Below, piece by piece: positions 9,476 to 22,061 of a DNA stretch of 24,667 bases. The stretch covers positions 1 to 24,667 of the forward strand of contig JAUWKS010000048.1 in the NCBI GenBank assembly GCA_030614005.1. The letters are read 5' to 3'. Positions within the stretch are counted from its first letter, which is position 1. Each line of letters opens with the position of its first letter. The notes beneath the pieces were generated by a model. That model did not search any database, was not told the origin of the DNA, and saw nothing but the letters and a program-made list of their open reading frames with translations. Source of the DNA: Candidatus Heimdallarchaeota archaeon (GTDB lineage: Archaea; Asgardarchaeota; Heimdallarchaeia; JABLTI01). Made by a program: the position numbers and the translations under genes.

Positions 9476-10336
9476 TCATCCGAAGTCTGAAAGAAGAGCA
9501 ACTGCATTAGGTCCCGTATGAGCAGAAATGGTACATTTTGTTCTTATGATTTTAATTTCTGCTTTTGGCACTTTAGCTAGAACGATCTTCTTCAATTTCT
9601 GTGCATTTGCCTCGTCGTTGGAATGAATAATAGTATACTTTCTTGGAAAACGAGTGTACTTTTCAGTTGTTAATTCAACAAGTTTTACTAATCCGTCATC
9701 AACATTGGATACGGTAGCTGCTGTCTCGTTTGTTCCTGCTTCATTTACTCGAGTAATAACTTTCTTTCGAAGAAGCCTAGCTAGATAATATTTCGTTAAA
9801 CTGATACGTCCTCCCAAATGAAGATATTTCAAAGTCGGAATAAAGATATACGTTTTCAGTAATTTTACTAGCTCATTCAACCTAGTAATTATTTTGTCAA
9901 TTGCCCATCCTTTTTCAATTAAATCGAGTGCTTCTTCTGCTAAGAAGACTTCTGGATAGGATGCATTCAACGAATCAACGAGATGAACCTTCACATTAGG
10001 ATACTGCTTTTCTAAGAATGTTACTGCTAATCGAGCACTATTCAAAGTGCCACTCATTGCAGAGCTTATACAAATAACGATAATTTCCGTTGCACCTTCT
10101 TTAGCTAACTCTTCGTATACTACAAGAAATTCTTTTGGAGAAGGTTGGGAAGTTTTTGGAAGGAAATCTGGATCAGTTTCATAATAACTGTAATGCTTGT
10201 CTAAATCAAAATTCCGATCTTCCTTATAGCTCTTATCATAGTAAGTTACACTTAAAGGAATAACCTTAATCCCATGCTCATCGGCATAATCCCAAGGAAT
10301 ATCAGATGAACTATCAATTATAATTCGAATTGCCAT
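9476..10336 (-). CDS. degV: DegV/FakB family fatty-acid-binding protein
   Basis: Motifs IIIDSSSDIP, PKTSQPSP, ISSAMSGT, YLHLGGRI and ISAHTGP. ATG 10336 is preceded by GTGA. Confidence 0.9.
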   Translation of the reverse strand: MAIRIIIDSSSDIPWDYADEHGIKVIPLSVTYYDKSYKEDRNFDLDKHYSYYETDPDFLPKTSQPSPKEFLVVYEELAKEGATEIIVICISSAMSGTLNSARLAVTFLEKQYPNVKVHLVDSLNASYPEVFLAEEALDLIEKGWAIDKIITRLNELVKLLKTYIFIPTLKYLHLGGRISLTKYYLARLLRKKVITRVNEAGTNETAATVSNVDDGLVKLVELTTEKYTRFPRKYTIIHSNDEANAQKLKKIVLAKVPKAEIKIIRTKCTISAHTGPNAVALLSDFG

Positions 10337-10527
10337 TTTTATCACTAACAACTATCTCTGAAATTAAGCTATTACTCCAATCATCTTATAAATAAATTTG
10401 GTAAAAAAATCAGAAGAAGAAACTAAATACCAAGTTTCTTTCTTTTGGAATCGATATGATTAACAATTCCTTACTCTAAAGTAATTTAATGAGAAACTTC
10501 TATATTGACTTATTTGTTGAATTAGGT

Positions 10528-11364
10528 ATGCAATTAGTAATTCTCGGATCTGGGCAAGATGCAGGGGTTCCGCAAATTGGTTGTTATTGTGATAATTGTG
10601 TAAAGTCTCGAGAGGATAAGACTTTTCGAAGGTTGGGTCCATCCATCGCTTTAATGGATTCAAAGAAAAAATTCTGTTATTTAATTGATGCATCACAAGA
10701 TCTAAAGGATCAGATCGACATGATTAACGAATTATTACAAAAGGACCCATCTGAAAAAAGTTTTCCAATTGATGGTATTTTCCTAACTCATACTCATTAC
10801 GGACATATTGCTGGTCTTTGGTCCCTAGGAAAAGAGTGTATTGATATTAAAAAAATAATTATTCATTGCACACAAAAAATGAAGCAATTTCTAGAAAATT
10901 ATCACCCTTTCAAACATCTAATCGAACAAGAGAATATTACTCCTATACCTTTTGAAATTGGCACAAAGCAACATTACAATGAGTTTTCTATTTCTTCATT
11001 TGAAGTTCCTCACCGAAATGAATATGTTGATACAGTTGGATACATTATTCATGCAACTAAAACTGTAGTCTATTTACCAGACTTAGATTATTGGACAGAA
11101 GAAATACTAGCAATAATCGAACAAGCAGACATTGCCATAGTCGATGCTTCCTTTTATTCAAAAGATGAATTACCACGAATGACCAATGTTCCACATCCAC
11201 CTATGATAGAAACAATGGAACGCTTGAAAGATTCTACAACAGAGATTTACTTTACTCATTTCAACCATACAAATAAAACACTTGATGTAACAAGTAAAGA
11301 AAGAAAGGAAACCCTTGAAAAAGGGTTCAAATTAGCTTATGATGGATTGATTATCGAGGTATGA
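10528..11364 (+). CDS. Metallo-beta-lactamase-fold protein, PqqB-like
   Basis: 'LGSGQDAGVPQIGCYCDNC' (PqqB-type CxCxxC), 'LIDAS', 'FLTHTHYGH', 'VPHRNE', 'YLPDLD', 'DASFY' and 'FTHFNHTN'. Start placed at ATG 10528 by family N-terminus. No other pqq genes are nearby. Confidence 0.8.
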   Translation: MQLVILGSGQDAGVPQIGCYCDNCVKSREDKTFRRLGPSIALMDSKKKFCYLIDASQDLKDQIDMINELLQKDPSEKSFPIDGIFLTHTHYGHIAGLWSLGKECIDIKKIIIHCTQKMKQFLENYHPFKHLIEQENITPIPFEIGTKQHYNEFSISSFEVPHRNEYVDTVGYIIHATKTVVYLPDLDYWTEEILAIIEQADIAIVDASFYSKDELPRMTNVPHPPMIETMERLKDSTTEIYFTHFNHTNKTLDVTSKERKETLEKGFKLAYDGLIIEV

Positions 11365-11418
11365 ATTATTTTGGTGAGAGAATTAAATGAAAAAGAAAAG
11401 AAAATGAGATCTGAATTA

Positions 11419-12291
11419 CTATCTTTTATCTTTCTCGCGCTTATCTCGAAGCATGTCCATATATTCACCTGTGACTTCTGTCATTCCTGCTTCTATAGCC
11501 TGTTCATTGATTTGTCGAACAACTCTATTTATGAATATTCGAGGAACTTTGACCAGCTTTTCACAAGCCTCATCGGTCCAATCGACCATTGGATCACACC
11601 TAGTTACTGCGTATCTAATTGTAGAAACATCAATACCCTTTGATTCAGGGATAGCCAATTTATAAGGTTTAGAGTGTTTTGTAAACCAGAAATTAGCATT
11701 ATTTCTATAGCCATAATCAATAGGCAATTTTGGAAATCCTTTCCCCTCAAATAAAGCTTGTTTCCACTTACTTTTCATAACAATTTTATCTATTAGAAGA
11801 ACCATATGACATTCTGATGTATTGTCATCCACATAAGCTGGTTCATTTGGATCAATTGTGCACTCAAAGATTTGAACAGCTTCTTCAACAATTTCCGGAT
11901 ATTGTTTACCAGCTTCTCTCTCTTCATCTGTTCTTGTTGATGGTAGAAGAGTAAAGATGCTATTTGCCATTTTTTCTTCTGTGGTCTCTCCAGGAAATCC
12001 TAACATCACACAATTTTCCATGTATTTCTTATCATCTTCTATAAAATTAATCGAACATACTCCAGTTCTAAGAATATTTGTAGCTGTGTTGCTAGTAGAA
12101 CGGGCATTTAATTTCATAGCATGTCTTCCTTCACCTGCTATTCTATAAGGAAAGCACAAAGAATATGGACCTAAGTTTGTTTTACCTGATTCAGATACTG
12201 TACCAATTAACACAACTGGCATTGGAAAAAAACTTGATGTTTGATAGAAATTATCCAAGATTTTTAAATTTTCGAATTTTTTATCTGGCAT
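11419..12291 (-). CDS. Flavin-reductase-like (FMN-binding split-barrel) protein with a C-terminal PCP_red-like domain
   Basis: 'FPMPVVLIGT..ESGKTNLGPYS..' and 'S.TA.NILRTG.CSINF' fit the flavin reductase-like fold. The C-terminus 'WTDEACEKLVKVPRIFINRVVRQINEQAIEAGMTEVTGEYM' matches the PCP_red pattern. Start ATG 12291 preferred (alternative TTG 12306). Confidence 0.7.
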   Translation of the reverse strand: MPDKKFENLKILDNFYQTSSFFPMPVVLIGTVSESGKTNLGPYSLCFPYRIAGEGRHAMKLNARSTSNTATNILRTGVCSINFIEDDKKYMENCVMLGFPGETTEEKMANSIFTLLPSTRTDEEREAGKQYPEIVEEAVQIFECTIDPNEPAYVDDNTSECHMVLLIDKIVMKSKWKQALFEGKGFPKLPIDYGYRNNANFWFTKHSKPYKLAIPESKGIDVSTIRYAVTRCDPMVDWTDEACEKLVKVPRIFINRVVRQINEQAIEAGMTEVTGEYMDMLRDKREKDKR

Positions 12292-12414
12292 ATCTCTATA
12301 ATTCAACTTGATTGTTATAAATATTATTGATTATGGATAATAATGTACATAAAATAAAAGGTTATTGAAATAATAAAAAGTGGAAAATATAATTCCATCA
12401 TTAGGACAATTTTA

Positions 12415-12567
12415 TTATCGTCCTGCACCGATGCCGATGATGTGTCCACAGCTGGTGCAATAAGCCATTGCTACTAAATCTCTGGGAAATTTACTATGCT
12501 CATGTGCTAATTGTTTGTATTTAATGTGTCCAGACTTTCCACAACCCGGACAAATAGGTTCTACCAT
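12415..12567 (-). CDS. Small CPxCG-type zinc-finger protein (50 aa; absent from the ORF track)
   Basis: MVEPICPGCGKSGHIKYKQLAHEHSKFPRDLVAMAYCTSCGHIIGIGAGR*. Two Cys knuckles, GGTGA SD at 12575-12579 and tandem TAA TAA stops. An in-frame alternative ATG lies at 12582. Confidence 0.8.
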   Translation of the reverse strand: MVEPICPGCGKSGHIKYKQLAHEHSKFPRDLVAMAYCTSCGHIIGIGAGR

Positions 12568-12766
12568 TTTTTTTTTCACCATTTAACTCATTTGATCTAC
12601 TTTTATCTGAGTCATTTAACTTTTTAGCATTTTCGCTTTGCTAGTTGTGTCAATATTTACTTGAATAAAACTACATATGCGATTTTCCTTTACACATTTG
12701 TACCTAGAATGATTAATAAATAATAATGCCTCTCTTTTGAAGGGTAAAAATTGAGGAAAAATACAA

Positions 12767-13309
12767 ATGAGTGTTAACAGTACAAGTGATATTGAAAAAA
12801 TAGAGAAGATATCTCTATTGAATGGAGCTTATAGGCCATGTCGCAAGTTTCTCTTCATATCAATTTTTGGGATACTATTAGGCTTTTTTTTCATCATTGC
12901 ATTTGTTATCTTAATCGCGGACGCAGATGGATGGGTATTAGTTTTGGTCTTTATTGGTGCGTTCATTCTCATTGCTTCTGTGCAGACGTTGAATAGATTT
13001 GTTTCACCAAATAGAGCTTACAAAAATGTAAAAGAAAAAATGAAAGCCAATGATATCGACGGGCTTCTAAACCAAGCGAAATATTCAGTAAATGCATCTC
13101 TTTTAGATAATGCCATAATGCTGTTTAGTTTATATGGATTAATTGATATGACTCGTACTGAAGTTATACCAATTTTACTAGAGCACCATATATATGCCCA
13201 AAAGGACCCGAAAAAAATGCGTGAGTTCATTCAACCAATGCACATATTATCAAGGAAATTGGGCTATGCAAGTTATCTTGATCTTTTAGCAAGATATGGA
13301 CAGGAATAG
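12767..13309 (+). CDS. Hypothetical membrane protein (2 N-terminal TM helices plus a helical soluble domain)
   Basis: Hydrophobic segments at aa ~28-51 and ~55-72; GAGG SD upstream; no family recognised. Confidence 0.65.
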   Translation: MSVNSTSDIEKIEKISLLNGAYRPCRKFLFISIFGILLGFFFIIAFVILIADADGWVLVLVFIGAFILIASVQTLNRFVSPNRAYKNVKEKMKANDIDGLLNQAKYSVNASLLDNAIMLFSLYGLIDMTRTEVIPILLEHHIYAQKDPKKMREFIQPMHILSRKLGYASYLDLLARYGQE

Positions 13310-13356
13310 CTTTTCTGTTCATTAAATTTATTATCTTGAATGCCATTTCACTTCAT

Positions 13357-14160
13357 ATGGCATCCCAAGGAGTAATTTTTGATATCAAAAAATACGCTAT
13401 TCATGATGGACCGGGCATTCGAACGACCATTTTCTTTAAAGGATGCCCTATGGATTGCTGGTGGTGCCACAACCCTGAAAGTCAGATGAAAGAACCTGAA
13501 CCTTTTAACGATTCGTTGAAAACAAATTCACTATATCTATGTGAAAATGATGGGGAAATTATTGGAAGAAATGTTTCAGTGAAAGAGGTAATGAAGGAAA
13601 TCGAAAAGGATATTATCTTCTACGAGGAATCAAATGGAGGGGTTTCCTTTTCCGGAGGAGAACCTTTGATGCAAAAGGATTTCTTAAATGAGTTATTGAT
13701 TAATTGTAAAAAAAATGGTTTACATACAACTCTAGATACTGCTGGTTGTGTTTCCAAAGAAATAATTCTCGAGATAGCTCCTAATGTTGATTTGTTCCTT
13801 TATGATTTGAAACTCATGGATGATAAAAAACACCAAAAATATACTGGAATATCGAATAAAGAACTATTAGAAAATCTACTGTTACTCTCTGAAATGAAAT
13901 GTAATATTATTGTTAGAATTCCAATTATTCCAACAGTAAATGATAGTAAGGAAGATATTGTTGACTTCGGCAAATTTATTCAAAAACTCAATATTATTCG
14001 CGTAGATCTTCTACCATATCATTCCATTGGTGAGGAGAAATACAAGAAGCTTAAGAAAGTAAACCGAATGAAAGAAATCATTCCTCCATCAAAAGAAAGG
14101 ATAGAGGAAATCATGAAACAACTCGAGAGCTTTGATTTAAATGTTAGTATCGAGGTTTAG
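13357..14160 (+). CDS. Glycyl-radical enzyme activating protein (radical SAM), short form without the ferredoxin insert
   Basis: 'HDGPGIRTTIFFKGCPMDCWWCHNPES' (GRE-AE signature with CxxxCxxC), 'GGVSFSGGEPLMQ', 'HTTLDTAG', 'LFLYDLK' and 'LLPYH'. Lies 2 nt upstream of the GRE. ATG 13357 preferred over TTG 13336. Confidence 0.92.
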   Translation: MASQGVIFDIKKYAIHDGPGIRTTIFFKGCPMDCWWCHNPESQMKEPEPFNDSLKTNSLYLCENDGEIIGRNVSVKEVMKEIEKDIIFYEESNGGVSFSGGEPLMQKDFLNELLINCKKNGLHTTLDTAGCVSKEIILEIAPNVDLFLYDLKLMDDKKHQKYTGISNKELLENLLLLSEMKCNIIVRIPIIPTVNDSKEDIVDFGKFIQKLNIIRVDLLPYHSIGEEKYKKLKKVNRMKEIIPPSKERIEEIMKQLESFDLNVSIEV

Positions 14161-14162
14161 CT

Positions 14163-16526
14163 ATGCTTGAAAGAATCCAACAATTACGCTCGCAATCCAG
14201 AAATGCACCACCAACTCTTTCGATAGAACGTGCTAAACTTATTACTGATTTTTACAAAAGTGGAGAAGTAGAAAAAGTTTCCACTCCTATTGCTCGAGCT
14301 CTGGCTTTCAAATATCTACTCGAGAACAAAGAGATTTGTATCAATGCAAACGAATTAATTGTTGGAGAAAGAGGAGAAAAGCCAAAAGCCACTCCAACGT
14401 ATCCCGAAATTTGTTGTCATTCTATGAAAGATTTAGAGATACTAGACTCGAGGGAGAAAATATCATTCAAAGTCACATCTGAAACACGAAAGATTACTCG
14501 AGACGTAATTATTCCTTTTTGGAATGGACGATCAATACGAGATAGAATTTTTGTTGAAATAGATACCAACTGGATTAATGCTTATGAAGCAGGTATCTTT
14601 ACTGAGTTTATGGAGCAGAGAGCACCAGGGCATACTGTTGCTGATGGAAAAATATTCGCAAAGGGATTCAATGATTTCAAAGATGAAATCAGAGTAAGTA
14701 TTGAAAAATTAGATTTTGTAAATGATTCCGAAGCTCTAGATAAACGAGAGCAATTGAAAGCAATGGAAATCGCTGCAGAGGCGATAATACTCTATGCGAA
14801 AAGGCATGCAGAAAAAGCATTAGAATTAGCAGAAGCAGAAACCGATGCTAAACGAAAGAAAGAACTGAAATTAATAGCAAAAATTTGTTCTAAAATTCCA
14901 GCGGAAGCTCCAACTAATTTCTATGAAGCATTGCAACATTATTGGTTCATCCATCTCGGAGTAATATCTGAATTAAATACATGGGATTCATTTAATCCAG
15001 GTAGATTAGATCAACACCTATATCCATTCTATAAACAAGAAGTAGAAGCAGGAAAGTTGACGGCAGATGAAGCGAAAGAATTGCTTAAAGCGTTTTGGGT
15101 TAAATTCAACAACCAACCTGCACCCCCAAAAGTTGGTGTAACAGCTGAAGAAAGCAACACCTACACTGATTTTTGCACAATTAATTTAGGCGGCTTACTT
15201 GAAAATGGAGAAGATGGTGTAAATGAATTATCCTTTATGATTTTAGATGTAATAGAAGAAATGAGAATTTTACAACCAGGATCAAACGTTCAAATAAGTC
15301 GTAAAACACCAGATGAATTTCTGAAGAGAGCACTGAAAATCATAAGCACTGGTTTTGGACAACCATCTATATTCAACACTGATATTGTAATCCAAGAAAT
15401 GCTACGCGTTGGAAAAACAATAGAAGATGCAAGAAATGGTGGAACCAGCGGTTGTGTAGAAACAGGTGCTTTTGGGAAAGAAAATTACAATCTTACAGGT
15501 TATTTCAATCTAGTAAAAATACTAGAAGTAACCCTACACAATGGGGTTGATCCAAGAACAGGAAAAGAACTAGGATTAAAAACAGGTGACCCGGTGAAAT
15601 TCAAATCATTTGAGGAATTATTCTCTGCTTTTGAACAACAAGTAAATTATTTCATTGATATTAAAATAAAGGGAAATAACATCATCGAACGAATTTGGGC
15701 AAAATACCTTCCTTCACCATTTTTATCAATAATTATAGACGATTGCATTTTATCAGGAAAGGACTACAACGCTGGAGGAGCAAGATACAACTCAAGCTAT
15801 ATCCAAGGTGTTGGACTTGGAAGTATTACTGATAATCTGACATCCTTAAAATACAATATTTTTGATAAGAAAAATCTGTCAATGGATGAATTACTAACAG
15901 CAATGAAGGATAATTTCAAAGGAAAGGAAGAACTGCAAAAAGCATTAATTTGTAAAACACCAAAATTCGGAAATGATGATGATTATCCAGATGCGATAAC
16001 ACAACAAGTTTTTGAAGTCTACTTCAATGCAATTGATGGCAAACCAAACACAAAAGGTGGTCATTATAGAATCAACCTTCTTCCAACAACAGTTCATGTT
16101 TATTTTGGCAGTGTCATTGGAGCAATGCCAGATGGAAGATTTGCTACTGAACCGCTATCTGAAGGAATTTCCCCAGTGCAAGGAACTGATGTTAAAGGTC
16201 CCACTGCAGTATTAAAATCAGCAAGTAAGATTGATCATATTAAAACGGGTGGAACATTGCTAAATCTGAAGTTTACTCCGAGTTTCCTAGAAACAGAAAA
16301 AGGGATAACAAATGTTGCTCATTTGGTGAGAGGATATTTCAAACTCGGAGGACATCACATACAATTTAATGTTGTTTCTTCGGAGATACTTAAAGAAGCA
16401 CAAAAAAATCCTGAAAAGTATCGAAATTTAATTGTTCGTGTTGCAGGGTATAGTGATTATTTCATTAATCTCGGAACAAAATTGCAAAATGAAATAATTC
16501 GAAGAACTGAACATGGAACTTCGTAA
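14163..16526 (+). CDS. hypD: Glycyl-radical enzyme, trans-4-hydroxy-L-proline dehydratase (HypD)-like
   Basis: Cys loop GTSGC431VE and Gly loop RVAG762Y. F149, H157, D275, S331, D336, F337, E433, Y447 and T642 line up with a constant +3 offset to C. difficile HypD F152/H160/D278/S334/D339/F340/C434/E436/Y450/T645/G765 (HypD numbering recalled from the literature, not aligned computationally). It has a single Cys (not the CC of PFL). GAGGT SD upstream. Confidence 0.88.
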   Translation: MLERIQQLRSQSRNAPPTLSIERAKLITDFYKSGEVEKVSTPIARALAFKYLLENKEICINANELIVGERGEKPKATPTYPEICCHSMKDLEILDSREKISFKVTSETRKITRDVIIPFWNGRSIRDRIFVEIDTNWINAYEAGIFTEFMEQRAPGHTVADGKIFAKGFNDFKDEIRVSIEKLDFVNDSEALDKREQLKAMEIAAEAIILYAKRHAEKALELAEAETDAKRKKELKLIAKICSKIPAEAPTNFYEALQHYWFIHLGVISELNTWDSFNPGRLDQHLYPFYKQEVEAGKLTADEAKELLKAFWVKFNNQPAPPKVGVTAEESNTYTDFCTINLGGLLENGEDGVNELSFMILDVIEEMRILQPGSNVQISRKTPDEFLKRALKIISTGFGQPSIFNTDIVIQEMLRVGKTIEDARNGGTSGCVETGAFGKENYNLTGYFNLVKILEVTLHNGVDPRTGKELGLKTGDPVKFKSFEELFSAFEQQVNYFIDIKIKGNNIIERIWAKYLPSPFLSIIIDDCILSGKDYNAGGARYNSSYIQGVGLGSITDNLTSLKYNIFDKKNLSMDELLTAMKDNFKGKEELQKALICKTPKFGNDDDYPDAITQQVFEVYFNAIDGKPNTKGGHYRINLLPTTVHVYFGSVIGAMPDGRFATEPLSEGISPVQGTDVKGPTAVLKSASKIDHIKTGGTLLNLKFTPSFLETEKGITNVAHLVRGYFKLGGHHIQFNVVSSEILKEAQKNPEKYRNLIVRVAGYSDYFINLGTKLQNEIIRRTEHGTS

Positions 16527-16633
16527 TATATATGAGAAAAAAGATAATTTAGAGATAGACAGGAATAATATGGAAAAAATAAAGTCTTCATTTTAGCTAG
16601 TTAGGAAACTAAAATTATTGTGGGAAATAGCTT

Positions 16634-17434
16634 ATGACGAAAAAATCAAACCAACAATTAACAAAGGAAGAAAAATTAGTTGTAAAGGATTTGAAAAAGA
16701 AATATGTTAAATCCCCTAATTTGTATTTTGTCGTTGAAGAGGAAGGACATATTGTTAGAATAGATCTTGATCAAGGAGGGGATAGGGAGCCAGAAGTGGA
16801 TGTAACTAGACTGCCAGAATCTTTCAAGAATCTCAAATGGTTAAAAAAATTAAGAATCCATGACAATGATTTATGTGAACTGCCAGATTGGCTTGGGGAG
16901 TTATCAGCTCTTGAAGATTTATGGTTGAATGATAATCCAATAAAAAATTTACCTGAATCAATAAGCAATCTAACAAAACTTAGAAAATTGAATATATCTC
17001 ATCAACAAAGATCGCTTAAATGGTCTGATCATAGAATAACTCAATTGCCAGAATCTTTTGGCAAACTGAGAGCACTTGAAATACTTGACTTGGTAGATAA
17101 TAGAATATCTAGCTTGCCTGATTCTTTTGGTGAGCTAAAATCACTCAAAGAATTATATATTAACAGTAACGAGCTGTCAGTTCTTCCAGATTCTTTTGGT
17201 GATTTGAGTTCATTGGAGATTCTAGATTTAAATAACAACAAACTTGAAACTCTACCAGATTCTTTTGGTAATTTACAATCATTAAGAGAGTTAAATTTGG
17301 GAATGAATAGTTTAATATCACTTCCTCCCTCTTTTGCAAATTTAACGAACTTGGAAGAACTCGAAACTTATAGTAATCAATTTAATGAAACTGCAGAAGA
17401 ACTCCTTGAACATTTGAATAAAAAGCAAAAATGA
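16634..17434 (+). CDS. Leucine-rich-repeat protein
   Basis: About 8 repeats of 'LP.SFG.L..L..L.L..N.L..' with a 23-aa period, after a short N-terminal cap. Confidence 0.93.
   Translation: MTKKSNQQLTKEEKLVVKDLKKKYVKSPNLYFVVEEEGHIVRIDLDQGGDREPEVDVTRLPESFKNLKWLKKLRIHDNDLCELPDWLGELSALEDLWLNDNPIKNLPESISNLTKLRKLNISHQQRSLKWSDHRITQLPESFGKLRALEILDLVDNRISSLPDSFGELKSLKELYINSNELSVLPDSFGDLSSLEILDLNNNKLETLPDSFGNLQSLRELNLGMNSLISLPPSFANLTNLEELETYSNQFNETAEELLEHLNKKQK
17048..17392 (+). repeat. Degenerate 69-bp tandem coding repeat (LRR units)
   Basis: Pro codons start repeat units at 17048, 17117, 17186, 17255 and 17324 (exact 69-nt period). The first four read CCW-GAW-TCT-TTT-GG; the fifth reads CCT-CCC-TCT-TTT-GC. 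Confidence 0.85.
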
Positions 17435-17489
17435 TAGAAACTACTATTGTTTTAGCTCGTTTCTTTTCCTTCTATAAACTAAAATTTGT

Positions 17490-17666
17490 TTAGTGAAAAT
17501 TATTGATATTACTAATATCAATTATATCAATTCCAGATTGCTCTTCTGTAACAATAGCTGAATTATTTGCAACAGATATTTTTTCAGTCCAATAGCTAAG
17601 TCCTAATTCACTGATTTTAGTTATTTCACTTGGATTAGTAATATTGAGAATTGCTGTGTAATTATT
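17490..17666 (-). pseudogene. Start-less relic of an LVIVD-repeat (beta-propeller) gene
   Basis: Open frame NNYTAILNITNPSEITKISELGLSYWTEKISVANNSAIVTEEQSGIDIIDISNINNFH* resembles about 1.5 LVIVD repeats ('I.NITNP..I..I', 'V....A.V.....GI.IIDISN'). No ATG; in-frame stops lie immediately upstream (17667-17669, 17676-17678). Confidence 0.6.
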
Positions 17667-17821
17667 TTAAAAAACCTAATTCCTATTTTTTAACCGCAGA
17701 TTTTTCCGACGAATATAGTGTTTTGCACGAAAATCTTTTGCCACAAAATATTGCTTTAAATATCAAGAGGGTAGGTTTAACCTTGGAAGAGTTTATTGAA
17801 TTGAAAACTCTGGTGTTTAAG

Positions 17822-18694
17822 ATGAAGAAAAGAATTATTACATCAATATTTATTATCGCTCTTACTCTCTCTTTGCCTCTTAGTGCAAGTCAAGGGTTAA
17901 GCGTTGGGGACTCTTTTACCTTTGAAGTAAAAGTCGCTTCTGGGAACTTTGAGTACATTGACGGAGTAACTACTATTTCAGGTGAAACAGATAAATTCCG
18001 TGTTGGTGATACAGCTGTAAACAAAGGCAGTCAATTGGATGTCGAAGTAACTAATATTGGAGCAAGCACTGTTAGCTTTGATATCGATCAGGATGGCGTT
18101 AATTTAGCTTCTCCTACATCAAGTGAATTAGGTTTTGCCTTGAGTCTTATTATTTATACTCTTTATCCTTTCATGGTAATGGGTATTTCTAGTGGATCTG
18201 TTCTTGCTGTTGATCCAGATAAAGGTGTCAGTTTAGGGGATATTTGGTATATTGCTCCTCCAACTATGGATTGGGATAGTGTTTATGATACTTTTAATAA
18301 CACTGATAATTGGGCGCCATATTTCTCAGCTTACAATCAATCTGAAGCGGATATGTCTGTAACAACTTCTGCTACTTGGTTTGATGGTGGTGAAACATTA
18401 CGTTTCATTGTTAGTGCTGCAGGTAATTATGTAATCGCTGCTGAAAGCACTGATCTATTAATTATACACGCAGTTGAATTCCATTACAATACTACTAGTT
18501 ACGTCCTCCAAGGATACGATATAAAAACAGCCATATCTGGAGATTATAAAGGAGATTCAACCACATTCAGTTTATCTGCTGAAATTGCAGAGGAGTCGTA
18601 TACTCGAAGAATTGGTATAGAACCTCTTGCTCTCATTCTTGGAATAATTCTATCTTCTGGAGTTCTTGTAATAATCAGAAAACGAAAGAAATAG
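17822..18694 (+). CDS. Secreted surface protein with C-terminal TM/basic-tail anchor (resembles the Asgard choice-of-anchor S family)
   Basis: The real start is likely ATG 17822 (GGTG SD; MKKRIITSIFIIALTLSLPLSASQG signal peptide), not TTG 17651. Beta-rich body; ends in 'LALILGIILSSGVLVIIRKRKK'. The family name is from memory only. Confidence 0.7.
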   Translation: MKKRIITSIFIIALTLSLPLSASQGLSVGDSFTFEVKVASGNFEYIDGVTTISGETDKFRVGDTAVNKGSQLDVEVTNIGASTVSFDIDQDGVNLASPTSSELGFALSLIIYTLYPFMVMGISSGSVLAVDPDKGVSLGDIWYIAPPTMDWDSVYDTFNNTDNWAPYFSAYNQSEADMSVTTSATWFDGGETLRFIVSAAGNYVIAAESTDLLIIHAVEFHYNTTSYVLQGYDIKTAISGDYKGDSTTFSLSAEIAEESYTRRIGIEPLALILGIILSSGVLVIIRKRKK

Positions 18695-18712
18695 TTATGA
18701 ATTTCCAGACTA

Positions 18713-18776
18713 TTTTTTCTTTTCTCTTTTTTTTTATTTTTTAATAGAAAAAAATTCAATAGAGAAGATTCTCTAT
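18713..18776. terminator. Bidirectional terminator zone between convergent genes
   Basis: A long T-rich tract (18713-18742) follows the + gene. On the - strand, hairpin ATAGAGA-AGAT-TCTCTAT (18759-18776) is followed shortly by a T7 run. Confidence 0.5.
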
Positions 18777-18794
18777 CAAACAAATAATAGATAA

Positions 18795-21158
18795 TTATTC
18801 TTCTTCTTTTTTGGTTTCATTGTTTTCTGTAGAGCCCTCTAAACCAAATGAATATCCACTGTAGATTGTTTCCAAAATATCTTTTTCATGTCCAGTTGCA
18901 TCGCTAAAGTCTTCAATTACTTCATCCTGAGGTGATTCAATTAAATCTTCACCTTCAGTAGATTGACTTATTGTTGATCCTATTACTGATAGAGTTTGGC
19001 TGTTTCTAGGTAATGGTTGTCTACTTCTACGTTTCTTTATTTGTCTCACTGAAACGAAAATCAATAGACTTGCGATAGCTAAACCAATTACTAGATAAAT
19101 CACCCAATTATTTGATGAGGTTTGTATAGTATATATTTCAACTTCAATATTGTAGTTGCCATTTCCAGACAATTTGGAAATTTCTAGATATACTTCACCT
19201 AGACTCTGTATTATTTTATAACTTAGTTCAGTAGTTGTTGTTGAGGAATCATCGTCAAATGCTAATAACACATCAGCATAATCAACAAGAAAAATTTCAA
19301 GAGAGATATTTAGTTCATGTGTTACTGTAATAGTAATAGTATCAACATTATTTGTATTGATACTATAATAATCTCGAGGATCTCCTAGTGGCAAGGAACC
19401 AGTAAATGTACCCCCATAAATATGAACAGCTGTAGATAATGAGTCACCAGCATCTCTTCCAGAATCGCCATCATTTTGAGTGGAGGGAGGAGGACCAGTG
19501 CTATCAGCCAAGCTAATTGAAAAAATATAATCGCCATCACCTGCTGCTTTGGAAATTCTAACAAAATAATAACCATATGTAGTAGGTCCATAGACAAGCT
19601 GCTCAGTAGAACCACTATTTGCACTCATAGCAATGAAGTTGTAAGCTGCATCAAAGAGGCTTAAATCAAAATCTGTTCCTGTTGAACCAGATAGAGTGAT
19701 GGTAATATCTCTATTACTAGTTGAGTAGAATTTATAATAATCAAAAGAATCACCTATAGGAAGAGTGCCACTATAAACACCGGTAGAAATTGTTAATGCG
19801 TCAGCAAAATTTGAACCAGCATCTCTACCTGTATTGGCATCATTCTGTAATGGATTAGTTTCATAATCGAATTCAAAATAACCATAGAAATTACTCATAT
19901 TAACAGACAAAGTTGAATTTATACCACCAGTGTTGCAATAGAGTTTTACAAAACTGAGTGTTTGATTTATACCATAATTGCTACTATGCCAATAAAGGAG
20001 ATTACTATTATCTGATAAATTATACAAGTGCAAAGAGAGAAAGTCTCCTGTTCGATTTATTGCGATAGTAATATTTCCAGTGATTCCAGCAGAACCCATC
20101 GAGGTGTTATATTCATCAGCTATACCATATGGATAACCTATAGCTGAATACTGACCTGATGAATTAGTCAAACTATCCTCAACTGAATGCCTGCCGATAG
20201 TAGAATTCGGATTAAGATTGCCCTCAAAATCGTAAATGCTTGAAAGTAACAAACCAAAAGAGCCTATACTTTCATCTGATGTGTAATTATAATAGACATC
20301 CACACTAACATAAAAGTCTGAACAATTACCAAGTAAACCCAATTGGAAATTGTAGGTTTCATTATTATTCTGTTTAGTTGTTTCATTATCATAATAGAAA
20401 TCCAGACCAGAGGAACTTTGTGAACTTTGAATATATGAGGAATTCGTCTCCAGTTGAAAATAAGAGAAATCAGTTACTAAAAGATCAGTTTCGGTTATGG
20501 AAAACACTTTGATGTTATCAAATCTAGCTTGATGCGAAGTGCCATCAGTATAGGCATAGATATTTACATAGCAGTAATCAATTTCCCCTTGATCTATCCC
20601 TGGGAGATAATTGTCAAGACAATAACTTAGGTTTCTATTATTTGTGATAACATGGTCGCTTATTGTCACAAATGAATCAATGAAACTTGCAACACGGATA
20701 TTCTTTTGTGTGGAAGTATCGCTCCAAATATCATTATCACTTAGATAATATCTAACGAACCCTAAATCTCCTGAAGAATCAGAACAAAATGTGAAATAAA
20801 CTGATGCTAGTGCATTCAAAGAAAATGTTGTAGAGTACAAGTCAGCATCGATAAGAGCATTCCAATCCAATAAATGACTAACTGATACCAACCTTAATGA
20901 TCCAGCGGAAGAGGATTGAACACTGAGATAACTACTAATAGTTTCTGTTGAATACCCACCAGAGTTCAATTGTACAGACCATTTCTCTAACCCGTATGTG
21001 AAATCTTCTGAAAAGAAGGTGGTTGTTATGTTTTCAGAGTTGTTACTCAATTCATTGGGTAATGACTGAGCTTTGATTGTTGAGCTATGCTGCATTACAA
21101 AACCAATAACCAGAAGAAATAGAATTATACCAACTGCGAAAAGACTTTTTTTCCTCAT
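18795..21158 (-). CDS. Type-I membrane surface protein with beta-rich N-terminal domains and two tandem PPC-like (pre-peptidase C-terminal) domains
   Basis: ATG 21158 with GGTGA SD (21163-21167) and a signal peptide. Two 123-aa repeats start 'QNDANTGRDAG' (19847) and 'QNDGDSGRDAG' (19478), with 'G.LP.GD..DYY' and 'L.G..GTDFDL.L.D'. TM WVIYLVIGLAIASLLIFVSV is followed by a basic then acidic tail. No protease catalytic motif seen. Confidence 0.75.
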   Translation of the reverse strand: MRKKSLFAVGIILFLLVIGFVMQHSSTIKAQSLPNELSNNSENITTTFFSEDFTYGLEKWSVQLNSGGYSTETISSYLSVQSSSAGSLRLVSVSHLLDWNALIDADLYSTTFSLNALASVYFTFCSDSSGDLGFVRYYLSDNDIWSDTSTQKNIRVASFIDSFVTISDHVITNNRNLSYCLDNYLPGIDQGEIDYCYVNIYAYTDGTSHQARFDNIKVFSITETDLLVTDFSYFQLETNSSYIQSSQSSSGLDFYYDNETTKQNNNETYNFQLGLLGNCSDFYVSVDVYYNYTSDESIGSFGLLLSSIYDFEGNLNPNSTIGRHSVEDSLTNSSGQYSAIGYPYGIADEYNTSMGSAGITGNITIAINRTGDFLSLHLYNLSDNSNLLYWHSSNYGINQTLSFVKLYCNTGGINSTLSVNMSNFYGYFEFDYETNPLQNDANTGRDAGSNFADALTISTGVYSGTLPIGDSFDYYKFYSTSNRDITITLSGSTGTDFDLSLFDAAYNFIAMSANSGSTEQLVYGPTTYGYYFVRISKAAGDGDYIFSISLADSTGPPPSTQNDGDSGRDAGDSLSTAVHIYGGTFTGSLPLGDPRDYYSINTNNVDTITITVTHELNISLEIFLVDYADVLLAFDDDSSTTTTELSYKIIQSLGEVYLEISKLSGNGNYNIEVEIYTIQTSSNNWVIYLVIGLAIASLLIFVSVRQIKKRRSRQPLPRNSQTLSVIGSTISQSTEGEDLIESPQDEVIEDFSDATGHEKDILETIYSGYSFGLEGSTENNETKKEEE

Positions 21159-21254
21159 ATTCTCACCAAATATCACTATGCAATTCCTTAACAATTGAAA
21201 TTAGCTATTTGCAAATATAAACTTTTACAAATAAAAATTGATAGAAAAATGTTC

Positions 21255-21276
21255 AAGTAGAGAGGGTTCTCTACTT
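21255..21276 (-). terminator. Putative terminator hairpin downstream of plsY
   Basis: Perfect 9-bp stem AAGTAGAGA-GGGT-TCTCTACTT, 17 nt past the stop, followed on the - strand by T-rich tracts. Confidence 0.55.
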
Positions 21277-21293
21277 AACATATGATTTGGTAA

Positions 21294-22061
21294 TTAGTCT
21301 TCTTCTTTTTTAGCTTCAGATTTTTCAGTGTCGAATTTCTCACTGAATTGTTGCCCTTCAGACATTTTTAAGGTCCATTCCTCTCCTTTAACAGCTGCTA
21401 TTAAGCTTGGAATGTGCCTTGGTAGTTGAGCTATCCACATACCTAGTGCTATGAAAAACTGTGCCATAAACAAAGTAACAGTCCCTGCAATAACTATTGG
21501 CCATTCTAAATGAATTGCTGTCCAAGGCGGACCGAACCCCATAAACATCGCAACGGGAACGTAGAATATTGCTGATAATACTGTTGATACCCTTGTAGGT
21601 ATTTTAAAAATACCTATCATTAAACCAAATGGTAGAAAATAGACGATTAGAACGAGAGGATTCACCCAAAACAGAGTTCCAATGAATACTGCTGATCCAC
21701 GTCCTCCTTTAAATTTTAAGAAGGGAGAATGATTGTGACCTAAAATACATAATGCTGGTCCAATAGTAACTGCCAATGTGTGCCATATTGGTGAATCATT
21801 TACAAAAGTGTCCATGGAGAAAATCCAATCCAATAATGCAATTGGAATAAAACCTTTCAGAATATCAACGAACATAACTGTAAGACCTATTGGTAACCCG
21901 TAAGTCATAACAGCATTAAATCCGCCTGGGTTTCCAATATTAAAATTCCTGAGATCTTTGCCTGTTGCTAATCTCCCAATGATTACAGAGTATGGAATAG
22001 AACCACTCAAAAATGAAGCTAGTAATCCTAGCACGAGCCACAAAATATTGATGAGAGCCAT
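21294..22061 (-). CDS. plsY: Glycerol-3-phosphate acyltransferase PlsY-family protein (divergent active site)
   Basis: 'SFLSGSIP', 'DLR...GNPG..N', 'DILKG', 'LGHN.SPFLKFKGGRG' and 'RH.......G.E'; multiple TM helices; GGTGA SD (22068-22072). Confidence 0.85.
   Translation of the reverse strand: MALINILWLVLGLLASFLSGSIPYSVIIGRLATGKDLRNFNIGNPGGFNAVMTYGLPIGLTVMFVDILKGFIPIALLDWIFSMDTFVNDSPIWHTLAVTIGPALCILGHNHSPFLKFKGGRGSAVFIGTLFWVNPLVLIVYFLPFGLMIGIFKIPTRVSTVLSAIFYVPVAMFMGFGPPWTAIHLEWPIVIAGTVTLFMAQFFIALGMWIAQLPRHIPSLIAAVKGEEWTLKMSEGQQFSEKFDTEKSEAKKEED

Follow-up and report, generated by a model that had tools for sequence, protein, structure and literature searches.

Can a gene annotated as plsY in an Asgard archaeon be taken as a sign of bacterial-type ester lipids? 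The question is raised by a 24,667-nucleotide contig of a Candidatus Heimdallarchaeota archaeon (here called the window, meaning this whole stretch of DNA), which carries both a DegV gene of the FakB type and a gene of the PlsY family. An initial annotation, made from the sequence alone, had proposed that these two genes are parts of a bacterial-type route in which PlsY transfers acyl groups onto sn-glycerol-3-phosphate (G3P), and that the organism may scavenge fatty acids into ester lipids. Asgard PlsY genes have been known since 2017–2019 (Manoharan et al. 2019, PMC6737245; Villanueva et al. 2017, quoted by Coleman et al. 2019, PMC6431249), and a 2026 paper names them once more (PMC13400652). 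They have repeatedly been cited as a hint of bacterial/eukaryote-type ester lipids in the archaeal ancestors of eukaryotes. What we find is that the window PlsY-like protein keeps most of the acyl-phosphate side of the PlsY active site and does not keep the clamp that holds the phosphate of G3P. The two genes in question are:

9476..10336, minus strand: DegV/FakB-type fatty-acid-binding protein, 286 amino acids (PF02645, 223.5 bits; TIGR00762, 242.8 bits)
21294..22061, minus strand: PlsY-fold membrane protein ("clade B"), 255 amino acids (PF02660, 105.6 bits)

The window is the entire contig C75 of its genome, here G000, an assembly of 3.62 Mb in 126 contigs with a completeness of 90.4% and a contamination of 3.4%. 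We compared it with ten genomes of the same genus (the congeners) and with 11 other genomes of the same family (family f1, which has 12 genomes with G000 included). The closest genome, G010, is a metagenome-assembled genome (MAG) labelled 'Candidatus Heimdallarchaeota'.

The active site of the window PlsY-like protein

The placement of 21294-22061 in the PlsY family is borne out by both profile and fold. The PF02660 score of 105.6 bits compares with a gathering cut-off of 24.1, with only profile positions 2-142 of 164 covered. An AlphaFold2 model of the protein (pLDDT 88.4, pTM 0.85, from 61 sequences) has the seven-helix PlsY fold, and the sole significant matches that Foldseek finds for it in the PDB are the PlsY structures 5XJ5-5XJ8 (E <1e-6, TM 0.80-0.83 by target). 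Against the PlsY equivalog TIGR00023, the protein reaches 82 bits and stays under the cut-off of 137.2. The ratio of nonsynonymous to synonymous substitution rates (dN/dS) of the gene is 0.07-0.12, and together with the predicted structure this indicates that the window protein is a well-folded PlsY derivative maintained by selection. Window-type proteins also have a conserved C-terminal tail of ~30 residues, for which bacterial PlsY has no equivalent. The archaeal-style Shine-Dalgarno sites first described for both genes hold up in part: an AGGTGA site lies ~10 nt upstream of the PlsY-like start, and the DegV start is preceded only by a weaker Shine-Dalgarno-like AGTGAT.

What a working PlsY needs can be read from the Aquifex aeolicus enzyme, in which Ser35, Arg45, Lys104 and Asn180 form a clamp for the phosphate of G3P, Ser142 and His177 bind the glycerol 2-OH, and the acyl-phosphate is bound by His92, Thr41 and the backbone of residues 104-107, with Asn37 as the oxyanion stabiliser and Arg183 aiding the exit of phosphate (PMC5700162). 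The Thr41 hydroxyl binds the acyl carbonyl, and the T41A mutant is severely impaired; S35A, R45K and N180A/Q/D each lose >90% of activity, with the Km (Michaelis constant) for G3P raised 5- to 36-fold (PMC5700162). We mapped residues through alignments to 5XJ5, E. coli PlsY and 133 library relatives, and compared ten functional positions, in Aquifex order S35/N37/T41/N42/R45/H92/K104/H177/N180/R183. At these positions, the window protein reads I-N-F-N-M-H-R-H-S-A (Aquifex residues in brackets):

I42 (S35), N44 (N37), F48 (T41), N49 (N42), M52 (R45), H109 (H92), R121 (K104), H216 (H177), S219 (N180), A222 (R183)

The clamp for the G3P phosphate is not kept, since I42, M52 and S219 stand in for Ser35, Arg45 and Asn180, and Lys104 has become R121. 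Arg183, on the phosphate exit path, is likewise replaced, by the alanine A222. On the acyl-phosphate side H109, N44, N49 and the G119-G120-x-G122 loop are kept, and Thr41 is F48. His177 of the glycerol site is kept as H216 (it is Leu in one orthologue), and the column of Ser142 is ambiguous in the alignment. Exactly S-N-T-N-R-H-K-H-N-R is read in 70 of the 133 library relatives, and most of the others are one position off. The window pattern is kept by seven of eight sampled orthologues (61-93% identity), two of which have Val for Ile; the exception, from G006, carries Leu in place of both Arg45 and His177. Asn37, Asn42 and His92 are invariant in these orthologues, and the glycine loop stays G-G-x-G. 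By analogy with the Aquifex enzyme, I42, M52 and S219 would be unable to hold the phosphate of G3P as the clamp residues do. Because three clamp residues are changed together, and single mutants at these positions cost Aquifex PlsY >90% of its activity, normal acyltransferase activity on G3P or on sn-glycerol-1-phosphate (G1P) appears unlikely for the window protein. The transfer of acyl groups onto G3P that had been ascribed to this gene is thus not supported, with three of the four clamp residues replaced, the fourth changed from Lys to Arg, and a score below the TIGR00023 cut-off.

The window gene is one of six PF02660 genes in G000, on contigs C123, C71, C8, C17, C75 and C103, none of which is canonical; congeners have up to 11 PlsY-like genes per genome. 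The copies on C123, C8 and C103 keep Ser35, Arg45 and Lys104 and have changed Asn37, Thr41 and Asn180. The C71 copy reads T-N-M-N-R-H-Q-L-S-K, and the C17 copy reads M-N-L-N-M-H-R-Y-P-D and resembles the window type, with which it forms a subclade in which the Ser35 and Arg45 positions are both hydrophobic. In a FastTree tree, which is to be read as an indication only because its long branches make deep relationships uncertain, the window, C71 and C17 types form one supported clade (96), and all six G000 paralogs form one set (95) that excludes E. coli PlsY and a canonical PlsY of the congeners described below.

Only three of the 1.84 billion representative proteins in a library match the window protein with E <1e-30. 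Each representative of its clade covers a cluster of one to seven sequences, and the sole named one comes from a Heimdallarchaeota MAG. Two other representatives are annotated by pipeline as 'glycerol-3-phosphate acyltransferase PlsY'. Members of this clade can thus be annotated PlsY although the clade has no glycerol-phosphate clamp; a PlsY annotation alone is no evidence for ester lipids, and the window PlsY is no argument for the synthesis of lyso-phosphatidate.

The archaeal contig, its DegV gene and the missing kinase

The DegV and PlsY families are typically bacterial, and a few close relatives of the window DegV are labelled 'Zixibacteria' or 'Bathyarchaeia' MAG, as might be seen if the contig were bacterial or chimeric and its archaeal context an artefact of binning. 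We regard the chance of this as close to negligible. Ten of the 16 window genes have counterparts in the same order on a 95-kb contig of the Heimdallarchaeota MAG (G010:C44, JABCTZ010000018), with protein identities of 73-93%. The GC content of the contig (0.334) is that of the genome (0.335), 10 of the 11 other same-family genomes have an orthologue of the PlsY-like gene, and contig C36 of G000 carries a DegV together with the archaeal ribosomal protein S3Ae; the named close relatives of the window DegV are nearly all Asgard. Because of the synteny and the matching GC, the contig is native, and a bacterial or chimeric origin is ruled out by these two features together with the family-wide distribution. 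The source of the contig is a Heimdall-group Asgard archaeon, so that the archaeal look of the window, remarked on from the start, can now be called Asgard. By synteny with the same G010 contig, the contig order is C75, C50, C115, and in this order two further DegV genes on C50 lie ~11-14 kb beyond the PlsY-like gene.

The intact DegV proposed at 9476-10336, with its Ser, Arg and His, is correct in coordinates and in residues. In the public annotation the gene begins with the ATG at 10336, and the longest open reading frame (9476-10351) begins at the TTG at 10351. Both DegV domain profiles are above their cut-offs, and the FakB1 equivalog NF038249 is not reached (124 bits vs a cut-off of 350), as is expected for a distant lineage. 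The best PDB match is S. aureus FakB2 (4X9X, E 4.9e-29), whose fatty-acid-binding motifs are kept as KTSQP (Thr/Ser), SSAMSGT (Ser), GGRIS (Arg) and SAHTGP (His), so that in this alignment the carboxylate-binding Thr/Ser, Ser and His and the conserved Arg are all in place. Selection on the gene is purifying, with a dN/dS of 0.10 in the comparison with an orthologue of 91% identity and of 0.06 with one of 69%. Nearly all relatives at 36-91% identity are labelled Heimdall, 'Asgard group', Thor or Gerd archaea, and bacterial DegV proteins follow only after a sharp drop (28-37% identity, E ~1e-32 or weaker). These comparisons argue against a recent import of the window DegV from bacteria and for an old gene, specific to Asgard archaea and kept under selection. 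It is one of many, as G000 has 19 DegV matches, including one with an in-frame stop, and congeners have 3-14 strong matches per genome. Among the 17 intact G000 open reading frames that we aligned, the Arg and the Ser of SGT are invariant and the His is variable. The copy with the in-frame stop (TAA; G000:C35:71937-72779) is likely a pseudogene or two fragments.

Two genes on the downstream side of DegV are:

9118..9444, minus strand: YCII-domain gene, 31 bp downstream of DegV (PF03795, 48 bits)
6531-8333, minus strand: divergent LctP-family permease (PF02652, 103 bits, far below the TIGR00795 cut-off)

The YCII gene and DegV may be co-transcribed; in the close relative L062, a metagenomic contig, no YCII gene is among the called genes next to DegV. 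The position of DegV is labile. L062 keeps the same block, with DegV beside a lactate-permease-like gene (an LctP-family permease, the next gene downstream of the DegV orthologue and on its strand). G010 has no DegV at the syntenic site and carries a prismane-family gene there in place of DegV and YCII, and the 69%-identical DegV copy has a wholly different gene neighbourhood. The prismane/hybrid-cluster-family gene, of 656 amino acids, lies on G010:C44 (L040:7377-9347) and marks a variable spot (window 9118-10351) within an otherwise syntenic block.

As first described, the window DegV and PlsY-like genes are not an operon: a distance of 11 kb and eight genes, which lie on both strands, separate them. 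The adjacent and co-oriented kinase, DegV and PlsY of a Fak-PlsY operon do not occur in the window, and an operon or a conserved pairing is ruled out by the different gene that G010 has at the DegV/YCII site and the different context of its DegV copy. Across G000, the two families are loosely associated, since a DegV lies no more than 15 kb from three of the six PlsY-like genes where 0.54 would be expected at random (P ~0.012), and on C103 one such pair is adjacent on the same strand. The window pair, taken alone, would arise by chance ~9% of the time and is not conserved, and we conclude that it is not a functional pair. In congeners, DegV and C71-type PlsY-like genes are interleaved, divergent or convergent at G005:C8:15919-19507, G004:C91, G007:C92 and G010:C13, and these coordinates alone suggest that DegV/PlsY-like pairs have been duplicated as units.

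Profile searches found no Dak2/FakA, no PlsX and no PF01553 (PlsC-type) acyltransferase in the 90.4%-complete G000 assembly; that FakA, PlsX and PlsC are lacking from the window itself had been seen correctly. Eight of the ten congeners have one Dak2 gene. At G010:C6:63777-66559, a co-oriented and closely spaced trio encodes a Dak2+FakA-like_M protein (330 amino acids), a DegV and a canonical PlsY, the last of which reads S-N-S-N-R-H-K-H-N-R and matches PF02660 over the full profile with 160.6 bits. In the archaeal kinase of this cassette, only Dak2 and FakA-like_M are detected, without the FakA C-terminal domain. No orthologue of any of the three cassette genes is present in G000, where the best identities are 35-38%. 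G000 contig C63 (59,943 bp) is syntenic with G010:C6 up to position 59,787, with protein identities of 74-95%; the cassette lies ~13 kb further along G010:C6 than the end of C63, and the next 40 kb of G010:C6 have nothing orthologous anywhere in the G000 assembly. Because the synteny breaks only at the contig end, short of the cassette, the likeliest explanation of this gene-order comparison would be that the FakA-like cassette of this organism lies in an assembly gap past the end of C63, and the kinase is missing from the assembly, not necessarily from the organism. A genome-wide search that had been suggested for FakA, PlsX, PlsC, GpsA and the G1P dehydrogenase (G1PDH) thus returned none of them in the assembly and an operon of FakA-like, DegV and canonical PlsY genes in eight of ten congeners. 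The scavenging of fatty acids into ester lipids is accordingly plausible by way of the congeners' cassette and not through the window PlsY.

The lipid genes found elsewhere in G000 give a mixed picture. GGGPS (PF01884) was found neither in G000 nor in the 11 other family genomes, and a tblastn search of G000 with GGGPS-like proteins from two other Heimdall families, in which 11 of 14 and 3 of 3 genomes have GGGPS, gave no match. PF01210 has a single match above its cut-off, at C72:1446-1793, which its ApbA domains (114.8 and 74.6 bits) mark as a ketopantoate reductase and therefore not a G3P dehydrogenase of the GpsA type. Both PF13685 matches, the candidates for G1PDH, proved to be normal alcohol dehydrogenases of the Fe-ADH type. 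For a route to G3P, a possible candidate is an FGGY kinase, which at 363 bits stays below the glycerol kinase cut-off of 590. The CDP-archaeol synthase CarS is encoded at G000:C72:4222-4728 (133 bits) and is found in 38 of the 41 genomes searched, G000 included, so the archaeal lipid pathway is not simply gone. CarS is thus kept in an assembly in which neither GGGPS nor a G1PDH-like gene was found. DegV, PlsY-like and Dak2 genes are common in families f1, f2, f4 and f5 and rare or absent in f3, the family richest in GGGPS matches, a pattern drawn from related and incomplete genomes and without statistics.

Proposed roles and alternative explanations

We lean, at slightly better than even confidence, towards a joint reading in which DegV is a FakB-type carrier for a FakA-like kinase and the PlsY-like protein is an acyl-phosphate acyltransferase whose acceptor is not a glycerol phosphate. 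The window would then hold two independent members of a lineage-wide Heimdall fatty-acid toolkit. DegV would bind a free fatty acid by its carboxylate and present it to the FakA-like kinase (Dak2 plus the FakA middle domain, ~330 amino acids), which would make acyl-phosphate and is probably present in the organism and lost in the assembly gap. The PlsY-like protein would be a seven-helix, PlsY-derived membrane acyltransferase with acyl-phosphate binding preserved, as suggested by its retained His92, Asn37, Asn42 and Gly-Gly-x-Gly phosphate hole. Its acceptor would most likely be an uncharged or lipidic hydroxyl and not G3P or G1P, because the cationic and polar clamp is now Ile/Met/Ser/Ala, and it would not be the lyso-phosphatidate-forming step. 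In this scheme, we infer acyl-phosphate as the donor, the nature of the acceptor, and the partnership of the window DegV with a FakA-like kinase.

Several points weigh against this scheme. Thr41 is Phe in the window protein, so the use of acyl-phosphate is not assured. The G000 assembly has no FakA-like gene, and two congener assemblies are also without one. A DegV is expected within 15 kb of ~9% of random loci, and the window pair has no specific linkage. The acceptor is not deducible from the sequence, and no conserved neighbour points to one; the long branches of the tree count here as well. We also know of no biochemistry for any archaeal PlsY or DegV.

The change at Thr41 leads directly to the alternative that the PlsY-like protein no longer transfers acyl groups from acyl-phosphate and is instead an acyl- or lipid-phosphate hydrolase, a lipid binder or flippase, or an enzyme with another activated donor. 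The severe impairment of Aquifex T41A fits this, as do the neutralisation of the whole cationic patch that guides phosphate, the conserved C-terminal tail that bacterial PlsY does not have, and the lack of FakA in the assembly. Yet none of the orthologues and paralogs compared deviates at Asn37, Asn42 or His92 (the changed Asn37 of the C123, C8 and C103 copies apart), the loop stays G-G-x-G, and the strong purifying selection fits a conserved active site; moreover, other PlsY-like genes adjoin DegV (on C103, and by coordinates in the congener pairs), which ties the family to fatty-acid handling. We judge a loss of transfer to be unlikely, if not lightly dismissed. That the protein is still a G3P/G1P acyltransferase, working through a re-shaped pocket (for example with Arg121) and forming lyso-phosphatidate, would agree with its PlsY fold and PF02660 membership, with His177 of the 2-OH site kept as H216, and with a position 104 that is still basic. 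Bacterial PlsY, moreover, takes both G1P and G3P (PMC13400652), so its pocket tolerates some variation. The Aquifex data speak in the other direction, since each of S35A, R45K and N180A/Q/D was enough to remove most activity and raise the Km for G3P (PMC5700162), whereas in the window protein three clamp residues are changed together, two of them to hydrophobic ones, with Arg183 lost to Ala as well. The equivalog score is low and congeners have a separate canonical PlsY, so this explanation seems to us rather improbable.

On the DegV side, the proteins might work independently of any kinase, in the binding, buffering or trafficking of fatty acids or lipids, with 19 copies reflecting a diversity of ligands. 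The excess of DegV genes over FakA-like genes (19 in G000 vs at most one FakA-like gene per genome in the genus) would be explained in this way, and the conserved His is lost in several paralogs, no kinase or PlsY partner lies at the window locus, and the position of DegV is labile. In bacteria, however, one FakA serves several FakB proteins, as in the Fak systems of S. aureus and S. pneumoniae. All four FakB residues are present in the window copy, including the Arg kept by every intact aligned paralog, and a DegV sits within the FakA-like/PlsY operon of the congeners. We therefore consider a kinase-free role doubtful and favour the carrier role within the joint reading.

A wider version of that reading is quite speculative, and we think it improbable as a whole: the membranes of family f1 would be made partly from fatty acids, with one FakA-like kinase, ~19 FakB-type carriers and 7-11 PlsY-derived acyltransferases with different acceptors, and the window clade would acylate a lyso-lipid, a mono- or diacylglycerol or an ether-lipid core. 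If this were true, the window clade would supply the PlsC-type second acylation, or a neutral-lipid step, that seems to be missing from G000. In any case, the fatty-acid toolkit of this lineage is unusually large: DegV genes are numerous, several enzymes derive from PlsY, and congeners have a FakA-like operon. To know which acceptor the rewired paralogs use would be to define a new acyltransferase activity and to learn which lipids these close relatives of eukaryotes make.

Neighbouring genes and comparison with known systems

The other features annotated in the window are:

568-6159: FG-GAP/Big_7 surface-type protein, 1863 amino acids
13336..16526, plus strand: glycyl-radical enzyme activase and trans-4-hydroxy-L-proline dehydratase (HypD; NF043068, 1331 bits with a cut-off of 1100; activase TIGR02494, 285.6 bits)
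16634-17434, plus strand: leucine-rich-repeat protein, 266 amino acids, no counterpart at the locus in G010
18795-21194, minus strand: protein with a PPC domain, 799 amino acids, no counterpart at the locus in G010

The HypD locus lies between DegV and the PlsY-like gene and is not part of a lipid module. HypD and its activase are conserved in congeners at 78-91% identity, and no report of HypD in Asgard archaea was found among the eight best matches of a literature search on glycyl radical and Asgard. In G004, G005 and G009, HypD is the convergent neighbour of the PlsY-like orthologue. The neighbours of the PlsY-like gene that are conserved, within the genus only, are HypD, a choice-of-anchor S gene and a ChrB_C gene, all convergent or divergent; having no link to lipids, they give no functional clue. 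In the window, the leucine-rich-repeat and PPC genes lie between the PlsY-like gene and two of these neighbours, HypD and choice-of-anchor S. From the PlsY-like gene towards the next DegV pair, on C50, the intervening genes are those for an FtsX-like permease, a prolyl oligopeptidase, a TPR protein and a DUF4332 protein, again without a link to lipids.

Surveys of the lipid divide have noted members of the PlsY family in MAGs of Heimdall, Loki and Thor archaea and discussed them as potential lipid genes of bacterial type (PMC6431249, PMC6737245). In the relevant passages of these two surveys and of PMC13400652, the Asgard genes are taken as PlsY orthologues, and those passages make no mention of multiple paralogs, of a lost G3P clamp or of DegV and FakA-like partners. 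Our literature searches on DegV/FakB in Asgard and other archaea and on PlsY in Heimdall found nothing on DegV or FakA-like genes in Asgard or on PlsY paralogs that have lost the G3P clamp.

Compared with the G010 cassette and with the Firmicute route from FakA/FakB to PlsY, the system discussed here draws on the same three protein families, and the window DegV has the same FakB residues as the operon DegV and S. aureus FakB2 (4X9X). Unlike the cassette, the window genes are not an operon and have no kinase nearby, and the window PlsY is another paralog, whose acceptor pocket has been rebuilt; the cassette PlsY is at most 38% identical to any G000 paralog. The C123, C8 and C103 paralogs of the same genome retain Ser35, Arg45 and Lys104, whereas the window copy retains none of these unchanged. 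With bacterial PlsY (EC 2.3.1.275; Aquifex structures 5XJ5-5XJ9, PMC5700162), the window protein shares the Pfam family, the fold, Asn37, Asn42, His92, the Gly-Gly-x-Gly loop and His177. It differs from bacterial PlsY in having Ile/Met/Ser for Ser35/Arg45/Asn180, Arg for Lys104, Phe for Thr41 and Ala for Arg183, in its length of 255 amino acids against ~200, in its extra C-terminal tail, and in a score below the equivalog cut-off.

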